This document shows positions 1 to 51,615 of a stretch of 64,000 nucleotides of DNA, one piece after another (the stretch's first letter is position 1; the number at the start of each line of letters is the position of its first letter). The DNA lies in the IMG/VR virus record IMGVR_UViG_3300031857_000009. One strand, given 5' to 3'. The notes beneath the pieces were generated by a model that saw nothing but the letters and a program-made list of their open reading frames with translations, searched no databases and was not told where the DNA came from. Origin of the DNA: a virus. Taxonomy: Duplodnaviria; Heunggongvirae; Uroviricota; Caudoviricetes. The position numbers were made by a program, and so were the translations under genes.

Positions 1-129
1 GTTCGATACAATCCACGAGTTCAACCCAACTGGTTATTCGATGGTCACATCATGGACAATGATGGAGTACCACAATTGCACACCATCGATTACGGAGTGT
101 ACATCACGACAGGTGAAGGTGAAATTTAG
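1..129 (+). CDS. C-terminal fragment of hypothetical protein (5' end outside window)
   Basis: Frame 1 is open from position 1 and ends ...TTGEGEI*. The stop TAG at 127-129 lies inside an ATTTAGTTTGGC box. Confidence 0.4.
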   Translation, partial: VRYNPRVQPNWLFDGHIMDNDGVPQLHTIDYGVYITTGEGEI

Positions 130-150
130 TTTGGCCTAAAATAAAACAAC

Positions 151-627
151 ATGGACTTAATTAAAGCACAACGGTTAGCAGAGAAGTTAATTCACAAACA
201 CAAGTTAGATGTTAAGGGGTGGACATTTGCGTATGACAATGCAAAAAGTAGGTTTGGGTGTTGTAAATACAGACCTAAACAAATTACACTATCCAAAGTA
301 TTGACATTACTTAATGATGAAAGTCATGTAAAGAATACTATTCTACATGAGATTGCACACGCACTTTGTCCTGGTCAAAAACATAACCATGTATGGAGGT
401 CGAAAGCGATTGAAATAGGTTGTGATGGACATCGTTGTTATAGTAGTAAAGTAGTTGAAACACCCGAAGCAAAATATATTGCAACATGTGTTGGTTGTGG
501 TAAGGTATCCAAAGCCCATCGTTTAAGAAGTAGGTCTTATTCATGTAGCAATTGTTCGGGTGGTAGTTACAACCCAAAGTACAAATTGGAGTTCAGACCA
601 AACCCCATATTCACAGGGGGGATTTAG
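151..627 (+). CDS. SprT-like zinc metalloprotease with C-terminal Cys-rich zinc ribbon
   Basis: HEIAH (HExxH) followed by GQKHNHVW, then CxxC...CxxC. The stop TAG sits within the ATTTAGTTTGGC box. Confidence 0.55.
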   Translation: MDLIKAQRLAEKLIHKHKLDVKGWTFAYDNAKSRFGCCKYRPKQITLSKVLTLLNDESHVKNTILHEIAHALCPGQKHNHVWRSKAIEIGCDGHRCYSSKVVETPEAKYIATCVGCGKVSKAHRLRSRSYSCSNCSGGSYNPKYKLEFRPNPIFTGGI

Positions 628-690
628 TTTGGCGACAAAGTTGAAAAAAAATTTGGTATAAAAGAAAAATTGTTATATCTTTGTAATACA
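622..690 (+). promoter_or_regulatory. Repeated promoter cassette copy 1 (ATTTAGTTTGGC box + TTTG-N20-TATCTTTG)
   Basis: Box at 622-633, -33 TTTG at 652-655, -7 TATCTTTG at 676-683, ATG at 707. Matches the Bacteroidota sigmaA consensus TTTG-N19-21-TAnnTTTG. Confidence 0.6.
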
Positions 691-706
691 ATTAAATTAA
701 AAAAGT

Positions 707-1297
707 ATGGGATACACAACCGATTTCGAAGGTGGATTTGAATTCAGTCGTCCACTTACTAGTGATGAAAAGAATTACATCACCAAGTTCAACAACACTC
801 GTAGAATGAAACGAAATGTTGAGAAACTCTATGAGTTATTTAAGGGTGAACACGGAAACCCTTTTCTACCAAAAGAAGAAACCTACGGAAACGATGGTGA
901 ATACTTTGTTGGTGGTAATGGGTTCGCAGGTCAAGACAAGGATGATAGTATTGTCGATTACAATACACCTCCAGGTCAACTAGATTTTCTAACAACTAAC
1001 TACAACGAAAGGTGGACACAAAATGATTTGAGAACACGAGAGGGTAAATGTCAACCTGGTTTATGGTGTCAGTGGACTACGGATGAAAATGGAACTCATC
1101 TAATATGGGATGGTGGTGAGAAGTTTTACAACTACGTTGAGTGGTTGAAATATATCATCAATCATTTCTTTGAGAAGTGGGGTGTGAAATTAAATGGTGA
1201 GGTTTATTGGAAAGGCGAGGATGGTGAGGACATGGGTAAGATTGTTGTAAAGGACAACTGGGTCACAGTAAAATACGCGAGGATTACTTATGATTGA
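707..1297 (+). CDS. hypothetical protein
   Basis: 196 aa ORF directly downstream of promoter cassette 1, followed by a hairpin-T terminator. Confidence 0.5.
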   Translation: MGYTTDFEGGFEFSRPLTSDEKNYITKFNNTRRMKRNVEKLYELFKGEHGNPFLPKEETYGNDGEYFVGGNGFAGQDKDDSIVDYNTPPGQLDFLTTNYNERWTQNDLRTREGKCQPGLWCQWTTDENGTHLIWDGGEKFYNYVEWLKYIINHFFEKWGVKLNGEVYWKGEDGEDMGKIVVKDNWVTVKYARITYD

Positions 1298-1314
1298 TTG
1301 GTTTAAGGAGAGAA

Positions 1315-1338
1315 CCCCACAGAAATGTGGGGTTTTTT
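1315..1338 (+). terminator. rho-independent terminator
   Basis: CCCCACAGAAATGTGGGG hairpin followed by TTTTTTAT. Confidence 0.6.
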
Positions 1339-1378
1339 ATTAAAAACCTCGTACACATATATTATGGGATGGACATTG

Positions 1379-1445
1379 ATTTAGGTTGGCAACAAAGTTG
1401 AAAATAAATTTGGTATAAAAGAAAAATTGTTATATCTTTGTATTA
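1379..1445 (+). promoter_or_regulatory. Repeated promoter cassette copy 2
   Basis: ATTTAGGTTGGC at 1379-1390, TTTG at 1409-1412, TATCTTTG at 1433-1440, ATG at 1461. Near-identical to copies 1 and 3. Confidence 0.6.
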
Positions 1446-1460
1446 CTAAAACATTTTATT

Positions 1461-1772
1461 ATGTACAAGAAAAAAATTCAAGACCTACAAGAGGAAATAA
1501 TCAAAAAAATTAAAAACAAATGTTCGACCATTATTGGTGAGAACCAACAAATCACATTTAGAAATGTGTTTGGAGTTTGGGTTACCGAAGGTATGTACGA
1601 AGATGATGGTAGAGTTCAATACGCGGCGTATGGAATATTACCTGATGGTACTGTGATGTCGGAAAGTTTTGGTGATAGTATAGAACTCTCGTTAGTTGAA
1701 TTGGACATATATGAACTCGCACACATCATAGACATCCTTGAGTCGGATGACTTTACCGTCGAGGACATTTAG
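1461..1772 (+). CDS. hypothetical protein
   Basis: 103 aa ORF. It ends ...EDI* with the TAG inside the box of cassette 3. Confidence 0.5.
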   Translation: MYKKKIQDLQEEIIKKIKNKCSTIIGENQQITFRNVFGVWVTEGMYEDDGRVQYAAYGILPDGTVMSESFGDSIELSLVELDIYELAHIIDILESDDFTVEDI

Positions 1773-1830
1773 TTTGGCAACAAAGTTGAAAATAAATTTG
1801 GTATAAAAGAAAAATTGTTATATCTTTGTA
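1767..1830 (+). promoter_or_regulatory. Repeated promoter cassette copy 3
   Basis: ATTTAGTTTGGC at 1767-1778, TTTG at 1797-1800, TATCTTTG at 1821-1828, ATG at 1833. Confidence 0.6.
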
Positions 1831-1832
1831 TT

Positions 1833-2135
1833 ATGAAAAAAGAAAAAGTAATCCACTCGGTATCATCTCACTTGAGAGATAAGTCATATGAGATGAGAAT
1901 TATTCAAAATGAGAATAATGTCAAATTGAAAATGACCTACGAAGCGTACAACGCACAAGAAAGGTTTACAGGTGAACAATTCATCAATGGTAAATGGGAA
2001 CACACATTTGGAATGTTGGATTTGGGTGTTCTACCTGATAAGTCAATCTACGTGTGTAGTGAAGGAAAAAGAGAAGATAAGGCCGAAAAGTTATTTGGTC
2101 TTGGTACAAAATTGTTTAACATCTTAAATCAATAA
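1833..2135 (+). CDS. hypothetical protein
   Basis: The track ORF begins at a TTG at 1815 that lies inside the -7 box. The first ATG is at 1833 (MKKEKVIHS...), which gives a short leader typical of Bacteroidota. Confidence 0.5.
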   Translation: MKKEKVIHSVSSHLRDKSYEMRIIQNENNVKLKMTYEAYNAQERFTGEQFINGKWEHTFGMLDLGVLPDKSIYVCSEGKREDKAEKLFGLGTKLFNILNQ

Positions 2136-2139
2136 TACA

Positions 2140-2685
2140 ATGGGATTAGACATGTATCTCAAGAAGAAAACCTATGTGAAAAATTGGTCACATATGGAAC
2201 CCGAACAACTTCACAAGGTGACAGTTAAGAAGGGTGGGAAAGTAGTTAAGGAAATTCAACCCGACAGAATTTCATCCATCGAGGAACAGGTGGCGTATTG
2301 GAGAAAGGACAACCACATCCACGCATGGTTTGTAAACAATGTACAGGACGGTGAGGACGATTGTGGTGAGTATTATGTAGACCGCGAAAAACTCAAAGAG
2401 TTGGTGGATACCTGTGGGAAAGTTAGAGCAACCCTGAAAAATTCTCCGACGAAGAAGGTTCAGGTGAAAGTTGGTTGGCAAGGTGGTAAGGAATTGTATG
2501 AGGACATCGATGTCTACACCGACACCGAACTTGCGGAAGAACTACTACCAACCCAAGCAGGTTTCTTTTTCGGGGGAACTGAATATGATGAGTGGTATCT
2601 AAAAGGTTTAGAAGATACCATCAAACAAATCACTCCCTTATTAGAGGAAAAGGAAGGAGATTTCTACTACCAATCATCCTGGTAA
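2140..2685 (+). CDS. hypothetical protein
   Basis: 181 aa ORF, tightly packed after the previous gene. Confidence 0.5.
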   Translation: MGLDMYLKKKTYVKNWSHMEPEQLHKVTVKKGGKVVKEIQPDRISSIEEQVAYWRKDNHIHAWFVNNVQDGEDDCGEYYVDREKLKELVDTCGKVRATLKNSPTKKVQVKVGWQGGKELYEDIDVYTDTELAEELLPTQAGFFFGGTEYDEWYLKGLEDTIKQITPLLEEKEGDFYYQSSW

Positions 2686-2768
2686 AAAAATAAAAAGAGG
2701 ATATCGTTTGGTAAAATGGTATCCTCTTTATACCTTTGTATTAATGAACAGCTTAAAATAGATAGATT

Positions 2769-3383
2769 ATGCCGAACTGGTGTCAAAACTCAATAACAAT
2801 AACAGGTACTGAAGAGCAGATTGGTTTGCTCACTCGTATCCTTAATGATGTTCCAAAGTCCGAACCTGAAAAGTGTATCGTGTTTGAGTCCTTAATCGGT
2901 CGTGAACCTGAAATTAGTAAAGAAGAATACGAACAAGGTGGATGGTATAATGCAAACACCAGTTGGTATGGTACCAAATGGGATGTGTCATACGCCGACT
3001 GCAACTTCACTTTTGAGAAGGATGTTATCTATATGTCACCTGATACGGCGTGGTCACCACCAATAAACTTTGGTGTTGTATTACACAAGATGTATGGTGT
3101 GGATGTGGAGTTGTTCTACTCGGAGGGTGGAAGTGATTTCTGTGGCAAAACAACCATTAATCAAAACGGAGTGGTTGAGGATGATTATGGTTATCTCGAA
3201 GGTAACTATCGTTTTGACGAAGAATACTTTTGGGAATCCCTTTTCCAAAATGAGATGGAATATGCAATCGATAACGAAACTAGTGTTGATGACTTCGTTG
3301 CACAATTCCCTTATGTGGATACGGAAGACGCAAAAGAAATCCGTAGAATATACGAAGAAGAACTAAAGGAAAAAGTAAAATAA
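2769..3383 (+). CDS. hypothetical protein (MPNWC N-terminus)
   Basis: 204 aa ORF. The shadow ORFs on both strands here are shorter. Confidence 0.5.
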   Translation: MPNWCQNSITITGTEEQIGLLTRILNDVPKSEPEKCIVFESLIGREPEISKEEYEQGGWYNANTSWYGTKWDVSYADCNFTFEKDVIYMSPDTAWSPPINFGVVLHKMYGVDVELFYSEGGSDFCGKTTINQNGVVEDDYGYLEGNYRFDEEYFWESLFQNEMEYAIDNETSVDDFVAQFPYVDTEDAKEIRRIYEEELKEKVK

Positions 3384-3389
3384 ATTCAT

Positions 3390-3650
3390 ATGGAAGATTT
3401 GAAAATATTATCGACAGCAGAACCTCAAGAAGAATTAACCTACCAAGAATGGGTAGACGCATTGAGAACTCAAGAGAATGTCATTGTTTCATCCAAATAC
3501 CACGCAAGAACCATCGAGCAACGGATTAAAGTTGATGAAGCAATTCAAATGAAAAGAGAAATGGAAAACTCTGAAGTAAAATTTTCCGACGGGACAGCCG
3601 AACCCCGAATTTTGTTTGGCATGTTAAAATCTGTATTAAACTTCTTTTAA
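3390..3650 (+). CDS. hypothetical protein
   Basis: 86 aa ORF. A box variant ATTTTGTTTGGC lies near its 3' end. Confidence 0.4.
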   Translation: MEDLKILSTAEPQEELTYQEWVDALRTQENVIVSSKYHARTIEQRIKVDEAIQMKREMENSEVKFSDGTAEPRILFGMLKSVLNFF

Positions 3651-3655
3651 AGATT

Positions 3656-4135
3656 ATGGGACGAGTAAATAAAACAATCGAGGGTGTCTTCATTGACATC
3701 GTAGGGTCAAAGAGTGAACTGAGTTCATATGACCAATTCATCAACCACGGTGATGGTAAGAAATATTCTAAGGAGCTTAAAGAGCTCACTGGTTTATATA
3801 AGAACTTAATCACTGAGAGTAAATTAACATTCGAAAAACTAGCATCACTCGAGGAGATTATAATCCAAATGAGAATTCGTGAGGACCTCAGTGATATCAA
3901 GTTGACTCAAGTTCGTGAGTACATCTACGCAAGGACTCCTTTCTACCGTAAGGATAAGAAGTCAAAAGATGTCCGTGTTATTGTCGACAAGATTGAGTTT
4001 CACCCTGAGGAGGATTTGGAGATTTTGTCTGGCGACAAGGAGTTCATGACCAAAGCCAAGATGAAGTTAGCTCAGGCTATGGACCTCGAGATTGAGGAAA
4101 ACATCCGAGTATTCAAATCAACATTTAAAAAGTAG
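3656..4135 (+). CDS. hypothetical protein
   Basis: 159 aa ORF. Confidence 0.45.
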   Translation: MGRVNKTIEGVFIDIVGSKSELSSYDQFINHGDGKKYSKELKELTGLYKNLITESKLTFEKLASLEEIIIQMRIREDLSDIKLTQVREYIYARTPFYRKDKKSKDVRVIVDKIEFHPEEDLEILSGDKEFMTKAKMKLAQAMDLEIEENIRVFKSTFKK

Positions 4136-4139
4136 AGGT

Positions 4140-4439
4140 ATGAAAACAGAAACAATTTCAACAGGTATTGGACTCTCAATTTACAAAGGTGATTGGGATG
4201 GAGCACAGTGGACACTTACTGGTTTCCCTAAAAAAGAAGCAATTGGTCACGACTACGACTCTGCCTATGACTTCGAGGACTGTGTCAAGAGAAACATCAA
4301 TTGTAGTGGAATCGATTTTGACAGTGAGTATTGTCAGTTCTACGCATACGCAAAGACCAAAGCTCGTTTGGTGAGTTTTGCAAACCAAATCAAGAAACAC
4401 TTTGAGAAAGCAAAGCAACTGAAGGAGGAGATGTACTGA
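4140..4439 (+). CDS. hypothetical protein
   Basis: The first ATG after the upstream stop is at 4140 (MKTETIST...). The track extends to 4092 by overlapping the previous gene. Confidence 0.45.
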   Translation: MKTETISTGIGLSIYKGDWDGAQWTLTGFPKKEAIGHDYDSAYDFEDCVKRNINCSGIDFDSEYCQFYAYAKTKARLVSFANQIKKHFEKAKQLKEEMY

Positions 4440-4530
4440 ATTTAGATTGGCAAAAATATTCTAGAAAAATTTGGAATATTCTAGTAAATGTATTAATTTT
4501 GAATATAGAACATTAAAAATCAATAGGTGT

Positions 4531-5133
4531 ATGACAAACAAAATCAAATTAGGAACTGAGGTCGTAGTATCCGACCCTTGTTACACAATCCCAACCTGGT
4601 GTCAGGGAATTGTTAGTGGTGTTAAACCCGGTATGTATGACACCTATGTTAAGCGTCACGACTGTGGTGATTGGGGTATCCGAAGTTCAATGATACTTGT
4701 CATACACGAGGACCATAAAGACGACAAACTGGTTTGGAAAGATTATCCTGCAACCATCGGTGTCGACTCAGGTCAGTGTGGAATCTTCTCCAAAGAATCT
4801 TACCGTGACGACTCTATTACAGAACGAATCGGTTTGGGAGATGGTGACATTTCATTCTTTGGTGTAACACCTTGGAAAGAAATGACCGAGGCCCGTGAGG
4901 AAGAACAAGGTGAAAAATGGTACATCAGTATGTGTTCTCGTACCTTGGGTGATAGTCGATACGGTGTGTATGACGAGGGAGTAGTTTCTTCATCTGGTTT
5001 TGGTGATGGTTCTTACACATTATATGTTGCAAAGAAAAGAGGAAAGATTATTGCAATGTGTGTTGACTTCGCGGTGGAGGAAGACGAAGTAATTGATTTT
5101 GAATTTTTTCGTGATATCCATATTGAGAAGTAA
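4531..5133 (+). CDS. hypothetical protein
   Basis: Probable start is the ATG at 4531 (MTNKIKLG...). It is preceded by TTTG-N20-TAATTTTG at about 4471-4501. The track starts further upstream. Confidence 0.5.
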   Translation: MTNKIKLGTEVVVSDPCYTIPTWCQGIVSGVKPGMYDTYVKRHDCGDWGIRSSMILVIHEDHKDDKLVWKDYPATIGVDSGQCGIFSKESYRDDSITERIGLGDGDISFFGVTPWKEMTEAREEEQGEKWYISMCSRTLGDSRYGVYDEGVVSSSGFGDGSYTLYVAKKRGKIIAMCVDFAVEEDEVIDFEFFRDIHIEK

Positions 5134-5157
5134 TAAATTTTATTTAGATTTGGAGTT

Positions 5158-5448
5158 ATGAAAAAAATATTATTTATATCAGCACTTGGATTAGTTGGTT
5201 GTGGAACCAATCGAACATATATCCAACACGGGGACAAGGCATTAGTAAGTGGACACAAAGTTTACTTTATCGATTGCAACATAACCCGAGAAGTAATTAA
5301 ACCCCAATGGGATAAAGGTTCATATGGTGATACCATGAAGGTATACTTAGTGGATACACTGACATTTATGAATATGTGTAGAAAAGCATCACCATGTGGA
5401 TGTTCACCAGCAGGAACAACCGCAAATAAAACTGTAACAAAAACTTAG
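5158..5448 (+). CDS. putative lipoprotein
   Basis: N-terminal MKKILFISALGLVGCG lipobox signal peptide. Confidence 0.55.
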   Translation: MKKILFISALGLVGCGTNRTYIQHGDKALVSGHKVYFIDCNITREVIKPQWDKGSYGDTMKVYLVDTLTFMNMCRKASPCGCSPAGTTANKTVTKT

Positions 5449-5452
5449 TATT

Positions 5453-5914
5453 ATGTTCAATACACAGAAACCTCAAGAACCGATTCACATATTCACCCCA
5501 TCTCAGTGGTTGAATATTGGTTGGCTGGCCATGGTACCAGCAACTTACTTCGTACACCCATATGCATGTGCATTGGCGGTAGTCATCTATATCTACAAAT
5601 ATTTCGAAGTAGATTGTTGGAGGTATGAATTCTATGATGACTGTGTAATTGAACGAAAAGGGGTCTTCAGTGTGACTCGAGAATCTGTGAACTATTTCAG
5701 GATTAAATCTGTAATGGTCGACGAACCATTTTGGATGAGATTACTTGGACTGTCTGTTGTTCGAGTTATTACTTCAGAGCAATTTAAACAGCAACTAATA
5801 TTTCAAGCCGTACCACACGGTGAAGGTATTCAAGCGTTTTTACAGCACAACGCAAGAGTGGAGAGACAAAATATGGGAATTAGGGATTTTGATGTATTCA
5901 ATACTCACCTGTAG
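5453..5914 (+). CDS. membrane protein with bacterial PH-like (bPH_2/YdbT-like) domain
   Basis: Two N-terminal hydrophobic helices followed by a YFRIK...VVRV segment resembling bPH_2. Confidence 0.45.
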   Translation: MFNTQKPQEPIHIFTPSQWLNIGWLAMVPATYFVHPYACALAVVIYIYKYFEVDCWRYEFYDDCVIERKGVFSVTRESVNYFRIKSVMVDEPFWMRLLGLSVVRVITSEQFKQQLIFQAVPHGEGIQAFLQHNARVERQNMGIRDFDVFNTHL

Positions 5915-6083
5915 CAATATTTAAAGTCATGATAGTAGTAGAACCACGGATTCAGGAACAGTTCATGAGGATAGCAATGGCTAGACTTAATAAGAAATAT
6001 TGTTTTAAACCTCAAAGGTTAGCAATGGCGGCCAAGATGTTTTCACAATATTTGCAACGTTTGGAAGAAAGGGGGAAGAGTAA

Positions 6084-6404
6084 ATGAAACTCTTCATCAG
6101 GGACAAGGTATACTTCACGGACCCTACCACAGGTGAAATAATAGAAGACACCATTACCGACGTTAATGACAACGTAGTGATGGGAAAGAAATTCAACTTG
6201 ACTGATTTATATTGGAAGGGTGAGTTAAACGTATATAGGTTAGAGTGTCACATATGTGGATTCAGTATACCAGCACCTCTATCGCAATTTCAGGTAGATG
6301 GAATAAAAGGTAAGCAGCAATTATTACCATCCACATGTGGTGTATGTTTAGAAGAGTCACGGTACCCTGATAACCCTGAGGAGGGAATCATACTGTGGAT
6401 TTAG
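6084..6404 (+). CDS. hypothetical protein
   Basis: 106 aa ORF. It ends LWI* with the TAG in the ATTTAGTTTGGC box at 6399-6410. Confidence 0.45.
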   Translation: MKLFIRDKVYFTDPTTGEIIEDTITDVNDNVVMGKKFNLTDLYWKGELNVYRLECHICGFSIPAPLSQFQVDGIKGKQQLLPSTCGVCLEESRYPDNPEEGIILWI

Positions 6405-6493
6405 TTTGGCATTAGTTCTTTGAAAGATTTTTTTATAGGATTTGGTTTTTAGGATTTTCTTGTGTATATTTTATATATCAAAATCAATATATT

Positions 6494-6763
6494 ATGGCAA
6501 CAAAGAAGTCCACAACTAAAAAACCCGCCAGCAAACCAGCGGCGAAACCAGCTCCAGCCCCCAAAAAGGGTGGGAAGAAAGCAGTAGCAGCTCCGGCTAT
6601 GAAAACAACCGTAAGTACTTACGTACCTGTTTCACACCACATCTACTATGATGGTTTCTCTTACCGTGTACGTGCTAGCGTTAACGGAACCCGTTACTCT
6701 CAGAACTTCTCCTCCAAGAAGAAAGCTTTCGAGTTCCGTAAGAGTATCTTGAGTAATATGTAA
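6494..6763 (+). CDS. lysine/alanine/proline-rich DNA-binding protein (histone H1-like tail + AP2-like fold)
   Basis: N-terminus is KKPASKPAAKPAPAPKKGGKK. C-terminus YRVRASVNGTRYSQNFSSKKKAFEF resembles AP2/integrase-type DNA-binding modules. Followed by a strong terminator. Confidence 0.5.
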   Translation: MATKKSTTKKPASKPAAKPAPAPKKGGKKAVAAPAMKTTVSTYVPVSHHIYYDGFSYRVRASVNGTRYSQNFSSKKKAFEFRKSILSNM

Positions 6764-6780
6764 TAGACGACTCAAGTCTC

Positions 6781-6811
6781 TTAACCAAATCCTGTGATTA
6801 ACGTCACGGGA
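6781..6811 (+). terminator. rho-independent terminator
   Basis: CCTGTGATTAACGTCACGGG hairpin followed by ATTTTTTTTTT. Confidence 0.6.
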
Positions 6812-6839
6812 TTTTTTTTTTAATGAGAATCCTGACGAC

Positions 6840-7030
6840 GGGACCTGAGATGGTCAATTTAGTTTGGCGGAAAGGTTGTTTAGACAATTGATGTTGTAAC
6901 AATAAATCCACCGATTTAGTTTGGCGGAATCAGAATCCTCAGAATCGTCCGACGGTACCGATTTTGTTTGGCACAAACTAACTAACACTTGTTAGTTCAG
7001 GGACCTGAGGAGGTCGATTTAGTTTGGCGG
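6840..7030 (+). repeat. Intergenic array of four ATTTAGTTTGGC-type boxes flanked by a ~30 bp direct repeat
   Basis: Boxes at 6857-6868, 6914-6925, 6961-6972 (variant) and 7017-7028. GGGACCTGAGATGGTCAATTTAGTTTGGCGG at 6840-6870 matches GGGACCTGAGGAGGTCGATTTAGTTTGGCGG at 7000-7030. Confidence 0.55.
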
Positions 7031-7034
7031 GGGA

Positions 7035-7853
7035 ATGGTATTTATATGTAAAGTAAATGAGATGATTAAACTAACAGAAACTTTAGAAGGTGATGATGTC
7101 CAAAAGTTTCACGACGCTTTACCACAAATAGGTGACTCACTTAAAGGACTGACCGATGGGACCATTACAATAAAATATGTTGTAGCTGAAGACCCAACCC
7201 AAGGAACAATAGATGGTGTCCCTTTTATAAGTGAATGTCTATTGAAACTATTTGTTGATGTTAACAGGGTTTATCCTGAGATGATTAATGACATCTACAT
7301 TTTGGTTGGCAGAAAAATTCAAGAGATTGGGTTCGGTGAATTTCCGTTCAAGTTAAGTATAAGGTCACTTCACCTTATTAACGGACCTTTAATTATTGAT
7401 TTATTAGAAGAATCGTTTGACAGAAATTATACCAATCACCTCAGGTATGATAATCCAACAATACAGTACATTTTGTCTGGCCAATATTCCCTTGTATTAC
7501 CTCAAGATGTATTACCTAAGTTTTTTGACCAAATGGATGAGTGGATAAAAATTTTAATAAAGAGAGCGACGGTGTATTACACCGTATATAAAAAAGGAAA
7601 GATAGATGACCATGAGTATGAACTCGTAGACAACCCAGTTATTAGAGTTGTGGTACGCGGGAAAAAAGATATAAAAAATGAAAAAGATTTAATTCCGTTC
7701 ATTGATTCAAAATTTAAAACCATAGATGGTATCGAAAAAGGTAGTCCCGATTTCCCCTATAACTTACAAGATAATATTATTGATAAGTTAGAAAAAAAGT
7801 TCAGGGAGAAACACAACGTAAGAATTTTTATTGACGACACGAGACGTGTATGA
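7035..7853 (+). CDS. hypothetical protein
   Basis: 272 aa ORF. An alternative start ATG at 7062 is possible. Confidence 0.45.
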   Translation: MVFICKVNEMIKLTETLEGDDVQKFHDALPQIGDSLKGLTDGTITIKYVVAEDPTQGTIDGVPFISECLLKLFVDVNRVYPEMINDIYILVGRKIQEIGFGEFPFKLSIRSLHLINGPLIIDLLEESFDRNYTNHLRYDNPTIQYILSGQYSLVLPQDVLPKFFDQMDEWIKILIKRATVYYTVYKKGKIDDHEYELVDNPVIRVVVRGKKDIKNEKDLIPFIDSKFKTIDGIEKGSPDFPYNLQDNIIDKLEKKFREKHNVRIFIDDTRRV

Positions 7854-7875
7854 CATATATACGTATATACATTAA

Positions 7876-7904
7876 CCCCCTTGTATGACACTTGGGGGTT
7901 TTTT
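7876..7904 (+). terminator. rho-independent terminator ending the plus-strand early block
   Basis: CCCCCTTGTATGACACTTGGGGG followed by TTTTTTAT. Confidence 0.6.
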
Positions 7905-8436
7905 ATTTACATCTGTTTTTCTGAAAATATAAAAATATAACTCTTATTTCGAACAAGGGTCAATCCCCTACTATGTCCCACAATTTCCCACTTTAATCCA
8001 CTTTTATGGATTGTAATACGACCAGCGGGATTTCTTGTCATACATTCGTATATATCTGAGAAAAATTCCTTACGACAAAAAATGTCTGGATTACAGGGTT
8101 AAAATCAAGGGTTTTTTAACTCTTTCTGTATTACATTAGGGGTATCGTGGGTCAAAATCCTATCACTACTGTACATCCAAACAGAGGGTAAACCACTATA
8201 ATGACATACCTGTTTTTCTCTCTCTTCAACCAGTTTCTTCTTAACCGATTCGTCAAAATAAACCCCATCAGATTCCATATCCGAGAGTGGTCTGTACAGT
8301 ATAAATTTTTTCATATAGATGTAACAACTATGGTTTCAAATTGTTTAAACCGATGTGGGTCTACCGCAGTAAACCATACTTTCTACCTTCTGTTTTTTTA
8401 ACCACCAAAGGTGGTTCATTAACTTTTTAATATACT

Positions 8437-8688
8437 TCATTTGTTATCCCTTATTATTCTTGTGATGATGTTTATGAAACCATTTAGGTTAGACATATTA
8501 TTAATAACCAAATCCAATTCCCATACATGAACATTCCAGTGTTCATCTTTAACCATGTCACTATCATCTGAAGTTAGATTAACATTATCTATATCCAAAT
8601 TATAATAGTACCATGGTTCTGTTTGTCCTTCAAGATTCCCTTCAACCTTTTCAAAACCCAAATCAATTAAATTCTGTTCTGTAATCAT
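8437..8688 (-). CDS. hypothetical protein
   Basis: 83 aa ORF, the first gene of the minus block. Confidence 0.4.
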   Translation of the reverse strand: MITEQNLIDLGFEKVEGNLEGQTEPWYYYNLDIDNVNLTSDDSDMVKDEHWNVHVWELDLVINNMSNLNGFINIITRIIRDNK

Positions 8689-9053
8689 AACGTAATATGT
8701 TTTTTTATTATATCCATTATTTCTCTTGTGAGACTACCAGCGGTTTTTGTTCCATCAATATTCCAACGAATAATCAATTCTTCTATAGAACCATATAGAA
8801 TGTTCTCTGTGTTCTTAATCCTCGCGTGTGGAACATCTTCCCCGTTTACACATTCTTCACCTTCCTTTTCCACAAATACAGGAATGATATCAAAATCAAC
8901 CATAGTATATTCCTTTAGTATATGACCATGATTCTTTACATCACCAGGGTGTAATGGGATTATTCCAATTTGGGTTGAATCGGTGGATGAGTTTATTTCA
9001 TCATACCATCTTACCATCCAATTATTATTTTCTTTATACAGTATTCCTTTCAT
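8685..9053 (-). CDS. hypothetical protein
   Basis: 122 aa ORF with a 4-nt overlap with its neighbour. Confidence 0.45.
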   Translation of the reverse strand: MKGILYKENNNWMVRWYDEINSSTDSTQIGIIPLHPGDVKNHGHILKEYTMVDFDIIPVFVEKEGEECVNGEDVPHARIKNTENILYGSIEELIIRWNIDGTKTAGSLTREIMDIIKKHITL

Positions 9054-9334: not shown

Positions 9335-9688
9335 TTAGTTATTTTCATTAATTTCCCCCAGCGATTCGTTAATCACTAAAAGTGTACCCAAAAACAAACG
9401 AATATAATCGTACATGTTTTCTATGTTACCTTCCACGTATTCATATGTATCCAATATCCTTTTAGCAAAATTAACATAGTCTTCCCTGTTTCCGTTTCTT
9501 TTAAAAGTCTCACCTTCCTCAATTACACGGGTTCCGTTATTATGACATATTTCCACGTGGGTATCAAATCGAAAATCAGGGGACTCTTCAAAGAATCTTA
9601 ATATAATAGTCATATCACCACGGCGAAGAATTTCACGGTGATTTTTATAGGTTATTCCCCTTAACAATGTAAAGTTAATTGTATCCAT
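9335..9688 (-). CDS. hypothetical protein
   Basis: 117 aa ORF. Confidence 0.45.
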   Translation of the reverse strand: MDTINFTLLRGITYKNHREILRRGDMTIILRFFEESPDFRFDTHVEICHNNGTRVIEEGETFKRNGNREDYVNFAKRILDTYEYVEGNIENMYDYIRLFLGTLLVINESLGEINENN

Positions 9689-10170
9689 TAATGATGATGC
9701 AATAATTCTTGGTAAACCTTTCCGTTTAATATATCTTTCTTCAACGCTTTATTCTCAGAATCACATATGATGAATCCCATATCCGTTCTGAATATTCTTA
9801 AGTACTTTAGATACCAACCATCGCGATAGGTTTCCAATGAGAAATACCTCCATTCACCCTCACCACCAGATTCTTCGTAGTATCTTTCCAGTAATGTGGT
9901 TAGTTCATCCTTGGTCCAAAAGAAATGTGGGTATTTGTTTATGGTAGAAATATCAGGATGTCCTTCATCATTCCAATGATATCCCACATGGAAATCCCTT
10001 GTATCCACATTAAACTTATTGTTCTTTGGACAATCCCAATCAATGTCTTTGAAGAATACCCATTTATCTTGTGGTTCCATATTATTTATTTTTTCCATTA
10101 AAATGAACCTCGGGCACCGGAACCGGGAATTTTTTCCACTATAACGACGTTTTTTGAAAATATTTTCCAC
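9688..10170 (-). CDS. hypothetical protein
   Basis: 160 aa ORF with a 1-nt overlap with its neighbours. Confidence 0.45.
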   Translation of the reverse strand: MENIFKKRRYSGKNSRFRCPRFILMEKINNMEPQDKWVFFKDIDWDCPKNNKFNVDTRDFHVGYHWNDEGHPDISTINKYPHFFWTKDELTTLLERYYEESGGEGEWRYFSLETYRDGWYLKYLRIFRTDMGFIICDSENKALKKDILNGKVYQELLHHH

Positions 10171-20284: not shown

Positions 20285-20512
20285 TTATTTTCCACAGGGA
20301 CAATGTCCTGCGTGTGTGATTCCTGAACCATGACTTCTATCGATTATGAGATAAGTATGTCCCTTATGTTCCCATTCAAAAACTCTGTATTCGGATTGAT
20401 TACTAAGTTTAATAGTTTGGGGGTTATTCCTATCGTTTACAACTTGTTTTGTGTTTGGTTCAGAACATGATGTGACGAGTAAAACAAATAAAATAATACT
20501 ACTTAATCTCAT
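20285..20512 (-). CDS. putative lipoprotein
   Basis: MRLSSIILFVLLVTSC lipobox. Confidence 0.45.
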   Translation of the reverse strand: MRLSSIILFVLLVTSCSEPNTKQVVNDRNNPQTIKLSNQSEYRVFEWEHKGHTYLIIDRSHGSGITHAGHCPCGK

Positions 20513-21371
20513 CTAATTGAATTTCAATTTCTTGTTGTCCTTCTTTTACAACTTGACTACCGTCAGCCATTCTATAATACTTAAACAAAACGTATTTATC
20601 GCCTTCGGTTGTTTTAAAATGTGTATGTTTGGTGTAAGGGTTTAGTTGAAAATCATGGTATAAATTTTTCCAAATTACTCCATCTCCTTTTACAGGTTTT
20701 ACACTTCTTTCAATTGAATTAAAAGTTAGATGTCCACCCTCAGTAATGTTATTCAATGATATTTGGACACTCCACAATCTATTACCCATGTTTGTAAACA
20801 ATTTGTCCTCCGATATTTGATTAGGTAGTAGAAAATCGTATTTTTCCTCATAATTGAATTCGGGTGTTATTTTTTGAATAAAAACATCTTCACCAAATGA
20901 ATCTCGAATACCAATAACAGAATTGATTCTCTCATTTACTGTTTTATAAATCTCAGACTTTTTATCTAACTTATGAATCATGGGTGATTGCAAGTCCTTA
21001 GATTTTTTCTGTGAGTTTAATTTTTTGTCTGTAATCGATATCAAATCATCACATTCAATTAATGTTAATAATTCAGGGTAATGATAAATTTCAACTAAAT
21101 TATTTTCAACTCTATAAGCTCTTGGGTTATCACATAGAGATTTATTGAACGGATAAAGTTCAACTTCGTAAGGTTGATTAAGGTTTTCCTGTGAATATTG
21201 TCTTTGCCAAATTAACGCGTTAGTTGGTTCAATTTCAAGTTCTCTTTTAATTAAATTGTAATCAAATCCATTATTAAGTAAAACATTAAAAATGGACTCT
21301 CTATCATATCCATTCACAATATTAGACCAAATCCATAGTTTCCATTCAGGAGTAAAAATTCTATTAATCAT
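20499..21371 (-). CDS. hypothetical protein (possible 2OG-Fe(II) oxygenase-like C-terminal region)
   Basis: 290 aa. The C-terminal GGHLTF...KHTHF...YYR pattern is loosely reminiscent of P4H-type oxygenases, but no clean HxD motif is present. Confidence 0.35.
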   Translation of the reverse strand: MINRIFTPEWKLWIWSNIVNGYDRESIFNVLLNNGFDYNLIKRELEIEPTNALIWQRQYSQENLNQPYEVELYPFNKSLCDNPRAYRVENNLVEIYHYPELLTLIECDDLISITDKKLNSQKKSKDLQSPMIHKLDKKSEIYKTVNERINSVIGIRDSFGEDVFIQKITPEFNYEEKYDFLLPNQISEDKLFTNMGNRLWSVQISLNNITEGGHLTFNSIERSVKPVKGDGVIWKNLYHDFQLNPYTKHTHFKTTEGDKYVLFKYYRMADGSQVVKEGQQEIEIQLDEIK

Positions 21372-22678: not shown

Positions 22679-24592
22679 TTAGTACTGAGATATCTTACCC
22701 AATTTAGTAACCTTGTTTCCCCTAAATTCTGAGTGTTCCTTTATTATGCCGTAAAAAGACACCTTTGAATTAATTGAAACGCTCTTATGTAAATTAGTTG
22801 TTAGGTATTCAGTATTAATTTCACCAAATTTAGAAAATATGTTACCATTTTTGTCAACCAAATCATAGACAGTTGTTGGCCCATAAAGACCATTCACGGT
22901 TCTAATATCGGTAACAGTTAGTTCAAAATAAATTTTCATACCAGGACTACCGACAAATTTACTCACCTTTAATTTGGATTCGTCAATGTCCCTTGATTTG
23001 TGGTTAACAAATGCATCAAAGTCGGTTACAAATCCTAAAGTGGTTTTGGCTCTTGTGTAAGCAACGTATTCTAAATTTTTTTCTTGTTCAATTTGCCATG
23101 GTAAGGTTGCAAATTTCGATGGAAATAATTCTGGGTGGATAATAAAAACCCTTTCTGATTCAAGACCTTTAGATTTATGTACGTTACTCAAGCATATTCC
23201 ACTTTTTTTATCATCTGAAAAGATATCATCGATTTTCTTTACAACAATTGCGGGGTCATCTATCCCGTGGGATAACGCTTCTATTACTTGTATCTTTTCA
23301 CCAAATAGAATTACTTGGTTATCCTCTAACGCTTCACTTCTTTTCATTGTGTGATTTGTCATTGTTTTTTCAATCAACTTTTCTTTGTCCTTAAGAAGAC
23401 AACATATTACGTTTGTCATGTTATATTCTTCATTCTTCTTGTTGCAAGAAAGTATCATGGTTTTCAAAGACTTACCAATATCAGAACCAATTATATAAGA
23501 TTTTTTACCTTCACTTAATAATTTGATACACAATGAGACAACCGGAAATGTATTTCTACACAAAACCATGTCCCCATCCATAATATCTTTATAGGAGAAG
23601 TTTTCAATTACTCTACCTGACCTATTTTTAGAATGAGCAATGATTGCTGGATTTATGTGTCGAACCAAATTTAAAATCTCAGGCGAGACTCTATATGTAA
23701 AAGACAATGGTAATTCAACCGTGTTTGGTAGTTCTTTCAATTTTTGATATGACTCATGGTCAGCACCTGCAAAACCATATATCGCTTGTTTAGGGTCACC
23801 TACAGCAATGAATCTACCACCATCAGGTTTCATTGCTTTTTGCATCAATAAACGGTGACAAGAATTCAAATCTTGACATTCGTCTATAAAAACAAAATCG
23901 TAATTATCTCCCGAATGGTTCAAAATGATTGGTAAAGAAATCATGTCGGTATAATCGAGAACCTTTAGATAAGACATACCCAATTTAGACAGATACCATG
24001 CGGCAGTGGATTCACCATCTTGATTGTTCACAGAATGAAACTCTGCAATTTTATTTATCTCACCAACACCAATTGGTTTGATATCAAAATTTACTAAATG
24101 TTGTCTCGATAAATTACACAGAGTTACAACATCGGTAACAAATTTATACCTGTCAATATTCTCACCTTGAACAGAATCATGGATGCCTTGAATGTACTTG
24201 TTTTGTTCTTCGTTGAATCCGTATTTGTCTAAACTATCGGGTTTTTCACCACTGTAAAAATTAATGATGTCCCAAAAAAGATTTCGATACTTTAAACTTT
24301 TTTCGTCAACACCACAATCATAGTTATTCCTCATGATTGTGTAACCGAAACCATGGACCGTTTTGACATCAATGTTCTTATTTTCGGGAATCCTTCTTTT
24401 TAATTCATCTCGTATACTAACATTGAATGCCAAAAACAATACTGATTTATCATCAGGTATTAAGTCCAAAGCTTTTAATAGTGTCGTCGTTTTACCACTA
24501 CCAGCAACAGCAGAAACTACTGCGTTTCGAGTATCTTTTAAAATAAAATTGAAAATATCTTTTTGATATTTGCTGGGTGTAAATTTAGACAT
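22679..24592 (-). CDS. UvrD/PcrA/Rep-like superfamily 1 DNA helicase
   Basis: Walker A AVAGSGKTTTLL, a DECQD-like FIDECQDLN motif, and motif III VGDPKQAIYGFAGA. There is a C-terminal extension of about 120 aa. Confidence 0.75.
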   Translation of the reverse strand: MSKFTPSKYQKDIFNFILKDTRNAVVSAVAGSGKTTTLLKALDLIPDDKSVLFLAFNVSIRDELKRRIPENKNIDVKTVHGFGYTIMRNNYDCGVDEKSLKYRNLFWDIINFYSGEKPDSLDKYGFNEEQNKYIQGIHDSVQGENIDRYKFVTDVVTLCNLSRQHLVNFDIKPIGVGEINKIAEFHSVNNQDGESTAAWYLSKLGMSYLKVLDYTDMISLPIILNHSGDNYDFVFIDECQDLNSCHRLLMQKAMKPDGGRFIAVGDPKQAIYGFAGADHESYQKLKELPNTVELPLSFTYRVSPEILNLVRHINPAIIAHSKNRSGRVIENFSYKDIMDGDMVLCRNTFPVVSLCIKLLSEGKKSYIIGSDIGKSLKTMILSCNKKNEEYNMTNVICCLLKDKEKLIEKTMTNHTMKRSEALEDNQVILFGEKIQVIEALSHGIDDPAIVVKKIDDIFSDDKKSGICLSNVHKSKGLESERVFIIHPELFPSKFATLPWQIEQEKNLEYVAYTRAKTTLGFVTDFDAFVNHKSRDIDESKLKVSKFVGSPGMKIYFELTVTDIRTVNGLYGPTTVYDLVDKNGNIFSKFGEINTEYLTTNLHKSVSINSKVSFYGIIKEHSEFRGNKVTKLGKISQY

Positions 24593-31543: not shown

Positions 31544-31577
31544 AAAAAACCCCTCTTTCGAGGGGTTCTTTTTATTT
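31544..31577 (-). terminator. bidirectional-looking rho-independent terminator
   Basis: AAAAAA, then CCCCTCTTTCGAGGGG, then TTCTTTTTATTT. Confidence 0.6.
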
Positions 31578-50767: not shown

Positions 50768-51615
50768 TTATTCTTCAAACATTACCAGTTGTTTCTTTTG
50801 GTTATCATAATCAATCAATCTCTGTTGAGATATCTTTGTGTAAGATTCTGATAACTCAAAACCAATATAATTTCTATTCAGCTTCTTAGCTGACAAAGCG
50901 GTGGTTCCACTTCCTGAAAAACAATCAACAATCAGGTCATTTTGATAGGAAAGTATTTTTATTGCTTTCATTGGGATGTCCATGGAGAATGTGGCTTTAG
51001 TTAAAGATTTTGTGTCGTTGAAGTATTTCCATTGACCAAAGACTAATTCCATGAATTCGTTTTTGTCTTTATCTGAATAAACCCTTTTGTTTTTAAAATT
51101 ACCTTCCTCGTTTTCGACCTCAATCTGATTATAAGACCATTGAGATATACCTTTTTCTTTCTTTTTGTAATCTTTCTTATATGCAAGAATTACACATTCT
51201 TTTGGATTGTATATGTATGGTGATGATGGTGACATCCAAGAACCCCAAGCGGTTGTTTTAGAACGGTGTGGAGAATCCTCCTCTAAGTCCACAACACCAA
51301 AGAATCCAAAACCAATCTCTTTCATCATCTGCCAATATTCAGATACTAAGAAAATTCTCCCACCTCTTTCTCTAACGTTTATTTCATATGGTATATTCAA
51401 GGCAATTCTACCATCATCTTTTAATGTACGGTAAACTTCGGATAACCATTTCTTACACCACTCAAAATACTCATCCATCGGAGCATCGTCTTTGTGCACA
51501 TCATAACTAATACCGACATTGTACGGTGGACTCGTAACAAAGAGGTCTACAGTACCGTCATTTAACTCCTTAAACAGTTCTAAGCAGTCACCCTGATAAA
51601 TTTTATTCATTTCCA
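50768..51615 (-). CDS. beta-class DNA methyltransferase (N4-cytosine or N6-adenine), SPPY motif
   Basis: Motif IV DLFVTSPPYN is N-terminal and motif I DCFSGSGTT is C-terminal. The track start is a TTG; the first ATG is at about 51615. Confidence 0.7.

Follow-up and report, generated by a model that had tools for sequence, protein, structure and literature searches.

Near-identical, probable Bacteroidota-type promoter cassettes in an early-like region of a tailed phage, and their probable part in module recombination

Three near-identical direct repeats in the window (the whole 64,000-nt stretch of Caudoviricetes DNA that was analysed) are probably composite early-promoter cassettes that are read by the Bacteroidota primary sigma factor, sigmaA, and that double as portable homology for the recombination of gene modules. 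On sequence grounds, they are predicted to be strong host-type promoters placed before small early genes. In the proposed mechanism, the host primary RNA polymerase would read each cassette, in which a 12-mer, ATTTAG(T/G)TTGGC, is followed by an 18-nt A-rich linker resembling an UP element, then TTTGG, a 20-nt A/T-rich spacer and TATCTTTG. Transcription would begin 5 nt past this last box. The leaders of copies 1 and 2 would then be 16-19 nt long, the mRNA from copy 3 would be leaderless, and the genes so driven would be small ones of unassigned function in a + strand block that resembles a phage early region. Exchange between copies would remove, add, reorder or circularise gene-plus-cassette modules, which may account for differences among related phages. 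The features of the three-cassette region are as follows.

622-688, + strand: cassette copy 1, with the 12-mer at 622-633, the A-rich linker at 634-651, TTTG at 652-655, a 20-nt spacer and TATCTTTG at 676-683; predicted +1 at 688, 19-nt leader to ORF 707-1297 (g196)
1302-1345, + strand: intrinsic-terminator-like hairpin AGAACCCCACA..TGTGGGGTTTTTT, 3' of g196 and 33 nt ahead of cassette copy 2
1379-1445, + strand: cassette copy 2, with the 12-mer at 1379-1390 (ATTTAGGTTGGC), the -33 element at 1409-1412 and the -7 box at 1433-1440; predicted +1 at 1445, 16-nt leader to ORF 1461-1772 (g103)
1446-1833, + strand: 388-bp module of g103 and one cassette, missing from relatives that are 95-97% identical on either side of it (alignment)
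1767-1833, + strand: cassette copy 3, with the 12-mer at 1767-1778, the -33 element at 1797-1800 and the -7 box at 1821-1828; predicted +1 at 1833, the first base (A) of the g100 start codon (ORF 1833-2135)

The anatomy of the repeat is directly observed. Over 81 nt (622-702, 1379-1459 and 1767-1847, all on the + strand) the copies are 86-89% identical, and a section of about 65-67 nt (622-688, 1379-1445 and 1767-1833) is nearly invariant, including a 32-mer, TTTGGTATAAAAGAAAAATTGTTATATCTTTG, that has the same letters in 3/3 copies (0 expected from shuffles). An earlier note on this DNA had recognised three near-identical units and correctly written their consensus as ATTTAG(T/G)TTGGC...; the unit length, which it gave as about 75 bp, is nearer 65-70 nt, and the upstream conservation that it put at about 45 bp is really about 30 nt, consisting of the 12-mer and the A-rich linker of 18 nt. 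Nor is this upstream block one cassette-specific element; it is modular, and the 12-mer recurs eight more times with 0-1 mismatch between 124 and 7028. A scan for the cassette, which the note had recommended, was run over the 64 kb and placed the 32-nt core at the three copies only, with no further match at up to three mismatches. The three cassettes fold no better as RNA than shuffled sequences (z = -0.9, 0.0 and +0.7), and Rfam gave no match near threshold in window positions 1-9000 or in three related loci. The hairpin at 1302-1345 is kept in relatives.

The promoter reading is carried by two boxes and the distance between them. The consensus for Bacteroidota sigmaA comprises a -33 TTTG and a -7 TAnnTTTG, the latter refined to TAHHTTTG (PMC7366714, PMC9723704, PMC6847099), and TATCTTTG at 676-683, 1433-1440 and 1821-1828 fits both forms. 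TTTG-N20-TATCTTTG is present in 3/3 copies with a spacing of exactly 20 nt in each, just as the earlier note had stated. Across the window, 11 sites read TTTG-N20-TAnnTTTG (1.07 expected), and sigma70-type sites are not enriched (22 vs 26.6 expected). A search with nhmmer over the window and six related loci counted 21 cassette-like copies, all 21 of which read TTTGG-N19-TAnnTTT(G/A/T); the boxes and their spacing are kept while the letters of the spacer vary, and every copy is correctly oriented ahead of a start codon. This pattern of conservation is seen directly in the aligned copies, and the proposed sigmaA promoter has agreed with every sequence-level test that was applied to it.

Published start sites lie 4-5 nt past a -7 box that occupies -12..-5 (PMC9723704, PMC6847099). 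A box at -12..-5 sets the G of TTTG at -33, so that the two boxes span -36..-33 and -12..-5. The box-to-ATG gap is 23 nt at copy 1 (ATG 707) and 20 nt at copy 2 (ATG 1461), in line with the 15-25 nt claimed previously for all three; at copy 3 the claim fails, since only 4 nt separate the last base of the box (1828) from the ATG at 1833. Under the published rule the +1 of copy 3 falls on the ATG, and with so short a gap a leaderless mRNA is predicted. Among the 21 copies, the gap is either 4-5 nt (seven copies, before unrelated genes) or 20-26 nt, and the start of the copy-3 gene itself is predicted to have a leader in one relative (L003) and to lack one in another (L015). Leaderless mRNAs are scarce in the host phylum, at 3.7-5.5%. 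From these features we infer promoter activity and start sites, and likewise the early timing and co-regulation of the genes.

A host in the Bacteroidota, which the earlier note had deduced from the promoters, is backed independently by the gene set. Shine-Dalgarno-like motifs precede 2/84 ORFs (3% at random positions), A is enriched at -3 in the same set of starts, and the cultured phages with the best helicase matches have Bacteroides, Chryseobacterium and Flavobacterium as hosts. Comparison with cultured phages revealed no DNA similarity, near or distant, and tblastn with the PcfJ-like protein found no match among them. Paired 12-mers were also sought in bacterial genomes as a pointer to a host or prophage, and the only matches were unrelated tandem repeats in various phyla.

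The 12-mer stands out as an element in its own right. With 0-1 mismatch, ATTTAGTTTGGC has 11 occurrences where 0.59 would be expected; all are on the + strand, and all fall between 124 and 7028. When further variants are included, all copies fall in 124-7481 of the 64-kb window. Over four loci, sense and antisense copies number 58:5, with upstream flanks that are GC-rich and downstream flanks that are AT-rich. It often provides the TAG stop of the preceding gene, as at 625-627 in copy 1 (the stop of the SprT-like ORF 151-627) and at 1770-1772 in copy 3 (the stop of g103). The following features lie outside the three cassettes.

124-135, + strand: 12-mer ATTTAGTTTGGC, on whose TAG the preceding ORF ends; mosaic joint with L015 and L003
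2683-2740, + strand: hairpin AGAGGATA..TATCCTCT, covering the -33 element of a TTTG-N20-TACCTTTG promoter (2707-2738) 5' of ORF 2769-3383
3609-3620, + strand: 12-mer variant ATTTTGTTTGGC, in frame (ATT TTG) in ORF 3390-3650, 10 codons short of its stop
4022-4033, + strand: 12-mer variant ATTTTGTCTGGC, in frame in ORF 3656-4135
4440-4501, + strand: 12-mer ATTTAGATTGGC (4440-4451), 18-nt linker and promoter TTTGGAATATTC..TAATTTTG (4470-4501)
6399-6472, + strand: 12-mer (6399-6410), 30-nt linker and TTTG-N20-TATATTTT (6441-6472), the predicted promoter of ORF 6494-6763
6494-6763, + strand: 89-aa ORF with a disordered Lys/Pro/Ala tail followed by a four-strand-plus-helix domain (confident model)
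6857-7028, + strand: array of four 12-mers (6857, 6914, 6961 and 7017) in a 255-nt promoter-less intergenic region, past a terminator at 6787-6822
7299-7310 and 7470-7481, + strand: two in-frame 12-mer variants inside ORF 7035-7853

Several of these sites bear on gene ends. The 12-mer at 4440 adjoins the TGA of ORF 4140-4439, and the TAG of that at 6399-6410 is the stop of ORF 6084-6404. At the counterpart of 3609-3620, the L015 homolog of ORF 3390-3650 has the TAG form of the 12-mer and ends there. Another relative, L018, has an additional 72-aa ORF immediately 5' of the 4440-site 12-mer, and three 12-mers in its counterpart of the 6857-7028 array.

The distance from the 12-mer to the -33 element clusters at 7-8, 17-19, 28-31 and 40 nt. 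Because the 18-nt spacings are mostly homologous copies of one cassette family, the argument from helical phase has roughly a dozen independent promoter types behind it. Many 12-mers follow a terminator and precede the next promoter, which points to action on DNA rather than on mRNA, and those at 124, at 3609 and in the array have no promoter downstream, so that a pure promoter-element role is insufficient for all copies. Taken together, these sequence features indicate that the 12-mer is most likely a protein-binding element upstream of promoters. The suggestion of "an added UP element or operator" in the earlier note thus pointed in the right direction and was incomplete, the upstream block being an A-tract plus an independent, promoter-phased 12-mer. 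Other roles for the 12-mer were considered and rejected. It does not in general behave as the U-tract of a terminator, as a hairpin directly 5' of it is limited to roughly a fifth of the copies (mean z -0.65); nor does its internal TTTGG serve as a further -33 element, because the nearest TAnnTTTG-like word after it, TAAATTTG (1405 and 1793), is 16 nt off instead of 19-21. Relatives also contain inverted 12-mer pairs. An integron attC-like reading of these pairs was discarded, since GTTGGC misfits GTTRRRY and no integrase was seen. A literature search for the 12-mer gave chance primer matches only.

The protein encoded by ORF 6494-6763 may tentatively be put forward as the best candidate for binding the 12-mer. 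The folds that best match its predicted structure are those of AP2 and integrase arm-type DNA-binding domains; its family comprises at least 120 clusters and has no Pfam model, and in three lineages the ORF has 12-mer clusters on both sides. A ParB-like early protein of relatives (L018, 1685-2437) was considered as an alternative binder, its best match being a sub-threshold one to GmrSD_N. It is conceivable, although we would not count on it, that the 12-mer, in the general form ATTT(A/T)G(T/G)TTGGC, is the operator of an undescribed phage regulon in which the ORF 6494-6763 protein, as an AP2/arm-type monomer bound on one helix face ahead of each early promoter, would switch the whole early block, with the same sequence serving also as stop codon and module boundary.

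A further step would be to regard the whole system as chiefly one of operators, in which a phage repressor bound to the 12-mer blocks elongation at gene ends and so silences the gene block in the manner of stoperators, and the identity of the cassettes reflects constraint on the operator. The 12-mer is asymmetric, multicopy, unidirectional and located at gene ends over stop codons, which are hallmarks of stoperators (PMC9283540); the promoter-less array at 6857-7028 and the encoding of a small protein of DNA-binding-type fold between 12-mer clusters also speak for this reading. Against it, conservation is not limited to the 12-mer, since both promoter boxes and the distance between them are invariant columns in the 21 copies; within the window the 12-mer keeps to the left 7 kb instead of being scattered genome-wide; the phased distances from it to -33 elements are more suggestive of polymerase contact at promoters than of a roadblock; and the ORFs tested yielded neither an integrase nor an immunity repressor. 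As the principal explanation it is judged unlikely, and it is compatible with, rather than exclusive of, promoter cassettes that double as homology.

The second part of the preferred reading, namely that the promoter cassettes are also recombination joints, derives from comparison with relatives. The boundaries of the 388-bp indel fall within the repeat itself; as the module has the repeat at both ends, its limits may equally be set at 1379-1766. Among relatives, the same genes occur in at least seven arrangements (A to G) with every junction at a cassette, and genes beside cassettes are swapped in order or substituted. Breakpoints lie inside the cassette at window positions 675 (L011 and L020) and 1398 (L030), and L015 breaks at the 12-mer at 124, which in both L015 and L003 runs straight into a homolog of cassette copy 3. 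This coincidence of breakpoints and cassettes is observed directly, and polymorphisms within the cassettes are patchworked across copies and genomes. One contig, L026, consists of a 1,142-bp unit (cassette, g196, terminator, cassette, g103) with a start-end overlap of 141 nt, equal to the k of the assembler; such a circular or tandem contig is the product expected from exchange between copies 1 and 3, and a mixed population with both gene orders could also yield the cycle. Because about 65 nt are nearly identical across copies, the cassettes would also serve as portable homology, and homologous exchange or gene conversion is the mechanism that we infer. The earlier interpretation was supported as regards the promoter and the host phylum, erred on the distance to the copy-3 ATG and missed the role as a recombination joint. 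g103 itself had no match in IMG/VR and was found in a large protein collection; the linker pattern, when sought in IMG/VR, matched mostly coding DNA, of an unrelated nuclease gene.

The near-identity of the copies and their spread over no more than 1.2 kb could also reflect recent local duplication or a MITE-like selfish repeat, which would have no regulatory role and only an incidental association with the indel. This is very unlikely, since the cassettes have neither terminal inverted repeats nor target duplications and the limits of the indel lie inside the repeat; moreover, the architecture is kept before many unrelated genes and in diverged relatives, with the boxes selected and the spacer drifting, and all copies are correctly oriented ahead of a start codon. 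Promoters for another form of polymerase, either sigma54 or a phage single-subunit RNA polymerase, are highly improbable too. TTGGCAACAAAGTTGA agrees with TGGCAC-N5-TTGC at 8/10 positions, but the -12 position reads TTGA, TTCA, TTTA or GTAG across copies, and the defining GC dinucleotide is absent and not conserved. The start of the 12-mer is SP6-like (ATTTAGGT...), and the first 8 nt of copy 2 presumably match the SP6 promoter. Conservation in T7-type promoters reaches +1, whereas that of 12-mers outside the cassettes ends after GGC(A/G), and the tested ORFs, a non-exhaustive set, showed no RNA polymerase gene. Both readings were rejected on the varying -12 position and the early end of conservation. 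Finally, although assemblers can be misled by short repeats, an artefactual triple repeat or an artefactual gene between copies 2 and 3 is scarcely credible, as arrangement A (g103 between two cassettes) recurs with its own SNPs in independent assemblies of other samples (L025, of 3,934 nt, and L027) and the k of 141 with which those contigs were assembled exceeds the repeat length of about 65 nt.

Phages of Bacteroidota are plentiful in lakes, oceans and the gut, and to our knowledge their transcription signals are almost uncharacterised. A predicted promoter that is compact and strongly conserved, and that includes a natural leaderless version, may provide a genetic tool for Flavobacteriia or Bacteroidia. 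The use of a promoter cassette as a recombination joint, so far associated with T4-type phages of Proteobacteria, would now extend to another host phylum and another promoter type, with the natural variants among relatives as its documentation. In addition, the 12-mer and its candidate binder offer a testable way into early-gene regulation in Bacteroidota phages; if such a regulon does exist, a single short sequence would link the control of transcription to gene termination and to the recombination of modules.

Among known systems, the closest parallels are the promoter-early stem-loop (PeSL) mobile regulatory cassettes of T4-type phages (Arbiol et al. 2010, PMC2839356; Comeau et al. 2014, PMC4122927). 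Both kinds of cassette are short and composite, start from an upstream stop codon, contain an AT-rich stretch and a consensus promoter for the host primary sigma factor, run up to the start codon of a small, functionally unassigned gene and recur many times across a plastic early region, where they bound indels, replacements and rearrangements between close relatives. Small circular gene-plus-cassette products have been reported for PeSLs, and L026 is the candidate counterpart here. The promoter is of the sigma70 -35/-10 type in PeSLs and of the Bacteroidota -33/-7 type in the present cassettes. The stem-loop of PeSLs has no equivalent within the three cassettes, near which terminators are separate (1302-1345) or lie over another promoter, that at 2683-2740 being the only place where the PeSL-like overlap of terminator and promoter is seen. 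Unlike PeSLs, the cassettes have no Shine-Dalgarno sequence, several are predicted to be leaderless and an extra conserved 12-mer lies upstream. PeSLs belong to T4-type myoviruses, whereas the present lineage is not known as T4-type, and T4-like core genes were not seen among the ORFs tested.

The housekeeping promoters of Bacteroidota sigmaA (sigmaABfr) match the cassettes in both boxes, in box spacing and in A/T-rich surroundings. Unlike those host promoters, the cassettes are phage-borne, near-identical, multicopy and preceded by a phased 12-mer, and their -33 element is extended (TTTGG) and far better conserved than in Flavobacterium johnsoniae host promoters, where it is barely visible (PMC6847099). 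The upstream block recalls class I activator sites and UP elements, in that the A-tract adjoins the -33 element and the 12-mer centres at about -50, -60, -71 and -81, roughly at the helical repeat. We know of no upstream element of this kind described for the Bacteroidota polymerase. The 12-mer, rather than the whole cassette, is also stoperator-like, being asymmetric, 12-13 bp long, multicopy, unidirectional and placed at gene ends over stop codons. The stoperators of Cluster A mycobacteriophages are asymmetric sites that have one orientation relative to transcription, lie at gene ends, overlap stop codons and are recognised by a monomeric protein (PMC9283540). They differ from the 12-mer in host phylum and sequence and are bound by the repressor genome-wide in a temperate phage, whereas the 12-mer is confined to one block of the 64-kb window and is phased with promoters rather than overlapping them.

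A direct repeat of 81 nt occurs in three copies sharing 86-89% identity:

622-702, + strand: direct repeat, copy 1
1379-1459, + strand: direct repeat, copy 2
1767-1847, + strand: direct repeat, copy 3

The near-identical part covers about 65-67 nt when the window copies are compared and forms the cassette (622-688, 1379-1445 and 1767-1833), which consists of a 12-mer, ATTTAG(T/G)TTGGC, an A-rich linker, a -33 TTTG, a 20-nt spacer and a -7 box. Copies 2 and 3 differ only by a G/T change within the 12-mer, and copies 1 and 3 at three positions. A 32-nt core, TTTGGTATAAAAGAAAAATTGTTATATCTTTG, is the same in all three; it has no further match at up to three mismatches across the 64-kb window and never arose in 100 shuffles, which places the repeat far beyond chance.

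The earlier note had read these units as Bacteroidota promoters with an exact 20-nt spacing, and the spacing is borne out: in each cassette copy exactly 20 nt lie between TTTG and TATCTTTG. The published consensus for the Bacteroidota primary sigma factor is -33 TTTG and -7 TAnnTTTG (PMC7366714, PMC2483708); start sites mapped in Flavobacterium place the -7 box at -12 to -5, with transcription beginning 4-5 nt past its G, and refine the box to TAHHTTTG (PMC9723704, PMC6847099). TATCTTTG agrees with this refined form, and when the box lies at -12 to -5 the 20-nt spacing brings the G of TTTG to -33. The window holds 11 matches to TTTG-N20-TAnnTTTG where 1.07 would be expected, most of them in intergenic positions facing a gene, while sigma70-type sites show no enrichment in window 1-8200 (22 against 26.6 expected). 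A profile built from the three window copies retrieved 21 cassette-like sites in the window and six related metagenomic loci, all 21 of which read TTTGG, then 19 bases, then TAnnTTT(G/A/T). The boxes are thus fixed while spacer and linker vary, the conservation pattern expected for a promoter. Both the sequence and the comparisons give good support to reading the cassettes as Bacteroidota-type promoters, with predicted activity and start sites, and we infer that the genes they drive are expressed early.

The proposed distance of 15-25 nt from the box to an ATG holds for copy 1 (23 nt, ATG 707) and copy 2 (20 nt, ATG 1461) but fails for copy 3, where the box ends at 1828 and the ATG lies at 1833, a gap of 4 nt. 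Among cassette copies this distance is either 4-5 nt or 20-26 nt, and the short class comprises seven copies before unrelated genes, always with TTTGTATTATG or a similar sequence. The homolog of g100 (ORF 1833-2135) is leaderless in the related locus L015 and follows a leader of 21 nt in L003, and since its N-terminus is the same in the two loci the ATG at +1 is a genuine start; the mRNA from copy 3 is accordingly predicted to be leaderless. Leaderless transcripts make up only 3.7-5.5% of host mRNAs.

A host in the phylum Bacteroidota, previously deduced from the promoter, is supported independently of it. Shine-Dalgarno-like GGAG or GAGG at -18 to -5 precedes 2 of 84 ORFs, against 3% at random positions, and A is enriched at -3 (57%), matching the Shine-Dalgarno-free, Kozak-like initiation of Bacteroidota (PMC6847099). 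The UvrD-type helicase (22679-24592) has as its best cultured-phage relatives Bacteroides phages (36%), a Chryseobacterium phage (33%) and 29 Flavobacterium phage records. The window has a G+C content of 32.7% and no DNA-level match to cultured phages, and the host is well supported as Bacteroidota, with no finer rank assignable.

Window 16921-64000 carries many auxiliary-metabolism-like genes. They and other genes are:

20499-21371: 2OG-Fe oxygenase
24819-25928: aminotransferase
31572-32423: SPFH protein
45396-46721: thymidylate synthase, 441 aa
48659-49783: glutamine-synthetase-like gene
50768-51622: DNA methylase
52216-63267, + strand: 12-kb run of glycosyltransferase and UDP-GlcNAc 2-epimerase genes

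The thymidylate synthase appears to contain a large insertion, its Pfam match spanning protein residues 6-344 and only 227 profile positions. None of the window ORFs tested was identified as a virion gene, an absence suggesting that the genome greatly exceeds the window in size.

The same genes, including a SprT-like ORF (151-627), g196 (ORF 707-1297) and g103 (ORF 1461-1772), occur in at least seven arrangements among the window and its relatives:

A: SprT-like, cassette, g196, terminator, cassette, g103, cassette, g100; window and independent assemblies L025 and L027, with their own SNPs
B: A minus g103; a 72.9-kb and a 23.5-kb contig
C: g196, terminator, cassette, g103, cassette, g196; L026
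D: unrelated gene and promoter, then g103, cassette, g196, DUF932; L028, L029
E: gene ending at window 124-135, cassette, then directly the g100 homolog, without SprT-like, g196 or g103; L015, L003
F: g196 after a different upstream half-promoter, then cassette and a different leaderless gene; L011, L020
G: g103, cassette, then yet another leaderless gene; L030, L031

Two contigs with flanks 95-97% identical to the window carry only two cassettes. Aligned with them, the window has a clean 388-bp extra segment consisting of g103 and one cassette, and the single cassette that the relatives have at this site combines copy 2's 5' flank with copy 3's 3' flank. Arrangements E, F and G each break within the cassette: F breaks at the -7 box (window 675), G at the -33 region (window 1398) and E at the 12-mer. 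Small polymorphisms (GAC/AAC, GTTG/GTAG/GTTC, spacer TTG/TCA/TCG) are patchworked over copies and genomes, as would be expected from gene conversion, and L030 has a dozen early genes in scrambled order relative to the other relatives. L026 (ENA ERZ27275580, k141_1083742), a 1,283-nt contig from a k=141 assembly, has an exact 141-nt overlap between its two ends, giving a circular or tandem unit of 1,142 bp: cassette, g196, terminator, cassette, g103. Identical contig ends of this length at k=141 usually indicate that the template was circular or repeated in tandem; the overlap may otherwise reflect an assembly-graph cycle from a mixed population of arrangements A and D. Exchange between copies 1 and 3 would yield exactly this unit. 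Taken together, these comparisons point to the cassettes as recombination joints that shuffle early genes, which is the chief addition to the earlier finding.

The 12-mer is also dispersed outside the cassettes. At 0-1 mismatch there are 11 copies, those of the cassettes included, where 0.59 would be expected; every one is on the + strand within 124-7028, and four further copies at two mismatches lie in the same block:

124, 622, 1767, 6399, + strand: four 12-mers whose TAG is the upstream ORF's stop codon
4440, + strand: 12-mer adjoining a TGA stop
3609, 4022, 7299, 7470, + strand: four 12-mers within ORFs, in the same frame each time, always ATT-TTG
6857-7028, + strand: array of four 12-mers in a 255-nt spacer without a promoter

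The L015 homolog of ORF 3390-3650 has the TAG form and stops at the 12-mer, whereas the window's TTG form continues for 10 codons. Counted over the window plus three related loci, the 12-mer is sense in 58 cases and antisense in 5, and mean G+C is 51% in the 30 nt upstream and 29% in the 30 nt downstream. A hairpin lies immediately upstream of only about one-fifth of copies. An intrinsic terminator precedes and a promoter follows many of the copies (window 1379; L018 1491, 3170, 4124 and 4963), which argues that the 12-mer acts on DNA rather than mRNA. The distance to the next -33 TTTG is 7-8 nt (5 cases), 17-19 (18), 28-31 (6) or 40 (1), with one outlier at 21 nt and two further out. Such steps of about 10.7 nt would hold the 12-mer on one helix face, an argument resting on about a dozen independent promoter types since most 18-nt cases are homologous copies. 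An A-tract, AAAA(T/A)AAA, is kept between 12-mer and -33 element in nearly all copies. The suggested upstream "UP element or operator" was a fair first guess that resolves into this A-tract and a separate, phased 12-mer, the latter probably a protein-bound element.

Copy number varies between close relatives at equal sites (window 6399-6410 and L018 11541-11597, one and two; window 6857-7028 and L018 12047-12162, four and three). At the L018 counterpart of window 4439/4440, an extra 72-aa predicted membrane ORF (9359-9577) separates the 12-mer from the stop of the gene before it and ends on the 12-mer TAG. Relatives also carry inverted 12-mer pairs, ATTTTGTTTGGC ... GCCAACCAAAAT, in sequence lying upstream of what the window covers, with arms 4 nt or about 26-40 nt apart:

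L018 3170-3200, 4124-4190: inverted pairs
L033 ~747-797, 5453-5512, 9641-9701, reverse strand: inverted pairs
L017, several sites: inverted pairs
L015 2533-2592: inverted pair

Several spacers share a core, AATAAAATCAA(T/C)ACTTT, in either orientation between arms of unchanged orientation; these pairs could bind a second protein, form a cruciform or make up a small element that is invertible or structured. A GC-rich second word, (C)GACGACAGGT, recurs near 12-mers and promoters in L017, L018 and L033, and the window has only a degenerate form, CCTGACGACGGGACCTGAG, at ~6830.

A candidate 12-mer binder is the 89-aa product of ORF 6494-6763; in three lineages this ORF has 12-mer clusters on both sides:

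Window: one 12-mer before, four after
L018: two before, three after
L021: two before, two after

Its family comprises at least 120 clusters of 60-130 aa, has no Pfam model and combines a Lys/Pro/Ala-rich tail with a conserved Y..Y.DG.SYRVR...G......SKKKA..FR domain, predicted to adopt an AP2 or integrase-arm-like fold. An alternative candidate for a DNA-binding role is a 250-aa early protein (L018 1685-2437) with a DGQHR motif and a sub-threshold match to GmrSD_N (ParB-like nuclease fold). It is conserved wherever this portion of the early block could be retrieved from a relative (L017, L015, L021 and L030); L030 itself has almost no 12-mers. In the diverged relative L021, a TnpB/IS605 OrfB-type gene (1-659; HTH_OrfB_IS605, OrfB_IS605, Cas12f1-like_TNB) lies beside the same early-gene block.

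The probable shuffling of early genes by cassette and the dispersed 12-mer are the points of greater interest, and the composite explanation is considered likely overall. Like mycobacteriophage stoperators (PMC9283540), the 12-mer is an asymmetric site in many copies that points the same way as transcription and overlaps stop codons; however, it is restricted to one window block and phased with promoters, and no repressor for it was identified. Among described systems the nearest is the promoter-early stem-loop (PeSL) of T4-type phages, in which an upstream stop codon is followed by an AT-rich stretch, a consensus host promoter and the next start codon; PeSLs are repeated before unknown genes in plastic regions, mediate indels and replacements between close relatives and yield mini-circles (PMC2839356, PMC4122927). 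Two traits that define PeSLs are missing: the cassettes have no internal stem-loop (fold z-scores -0.9, 0.0 and +0.7), and they have no sigma70-type promoter and are not known to lie in a T4-type phage background. A single hairpin-over-promoter case lies nearby (window 2683-2740), where AGAGGATA/TATCCTCT encloses the -33 of a TTTG-N20-TACCTTTG promoter; terminator and promoter there share one 58-nt stretch. The cassettes match PeSLs in layout, repetition and cassette-bounded indels and replacements, with L026 as a candidate mini-circle counterpart, and by this analogy would represent PeSL-like mobile promoter cassettes built on a Bacteroidota promoter with an added upstream element.
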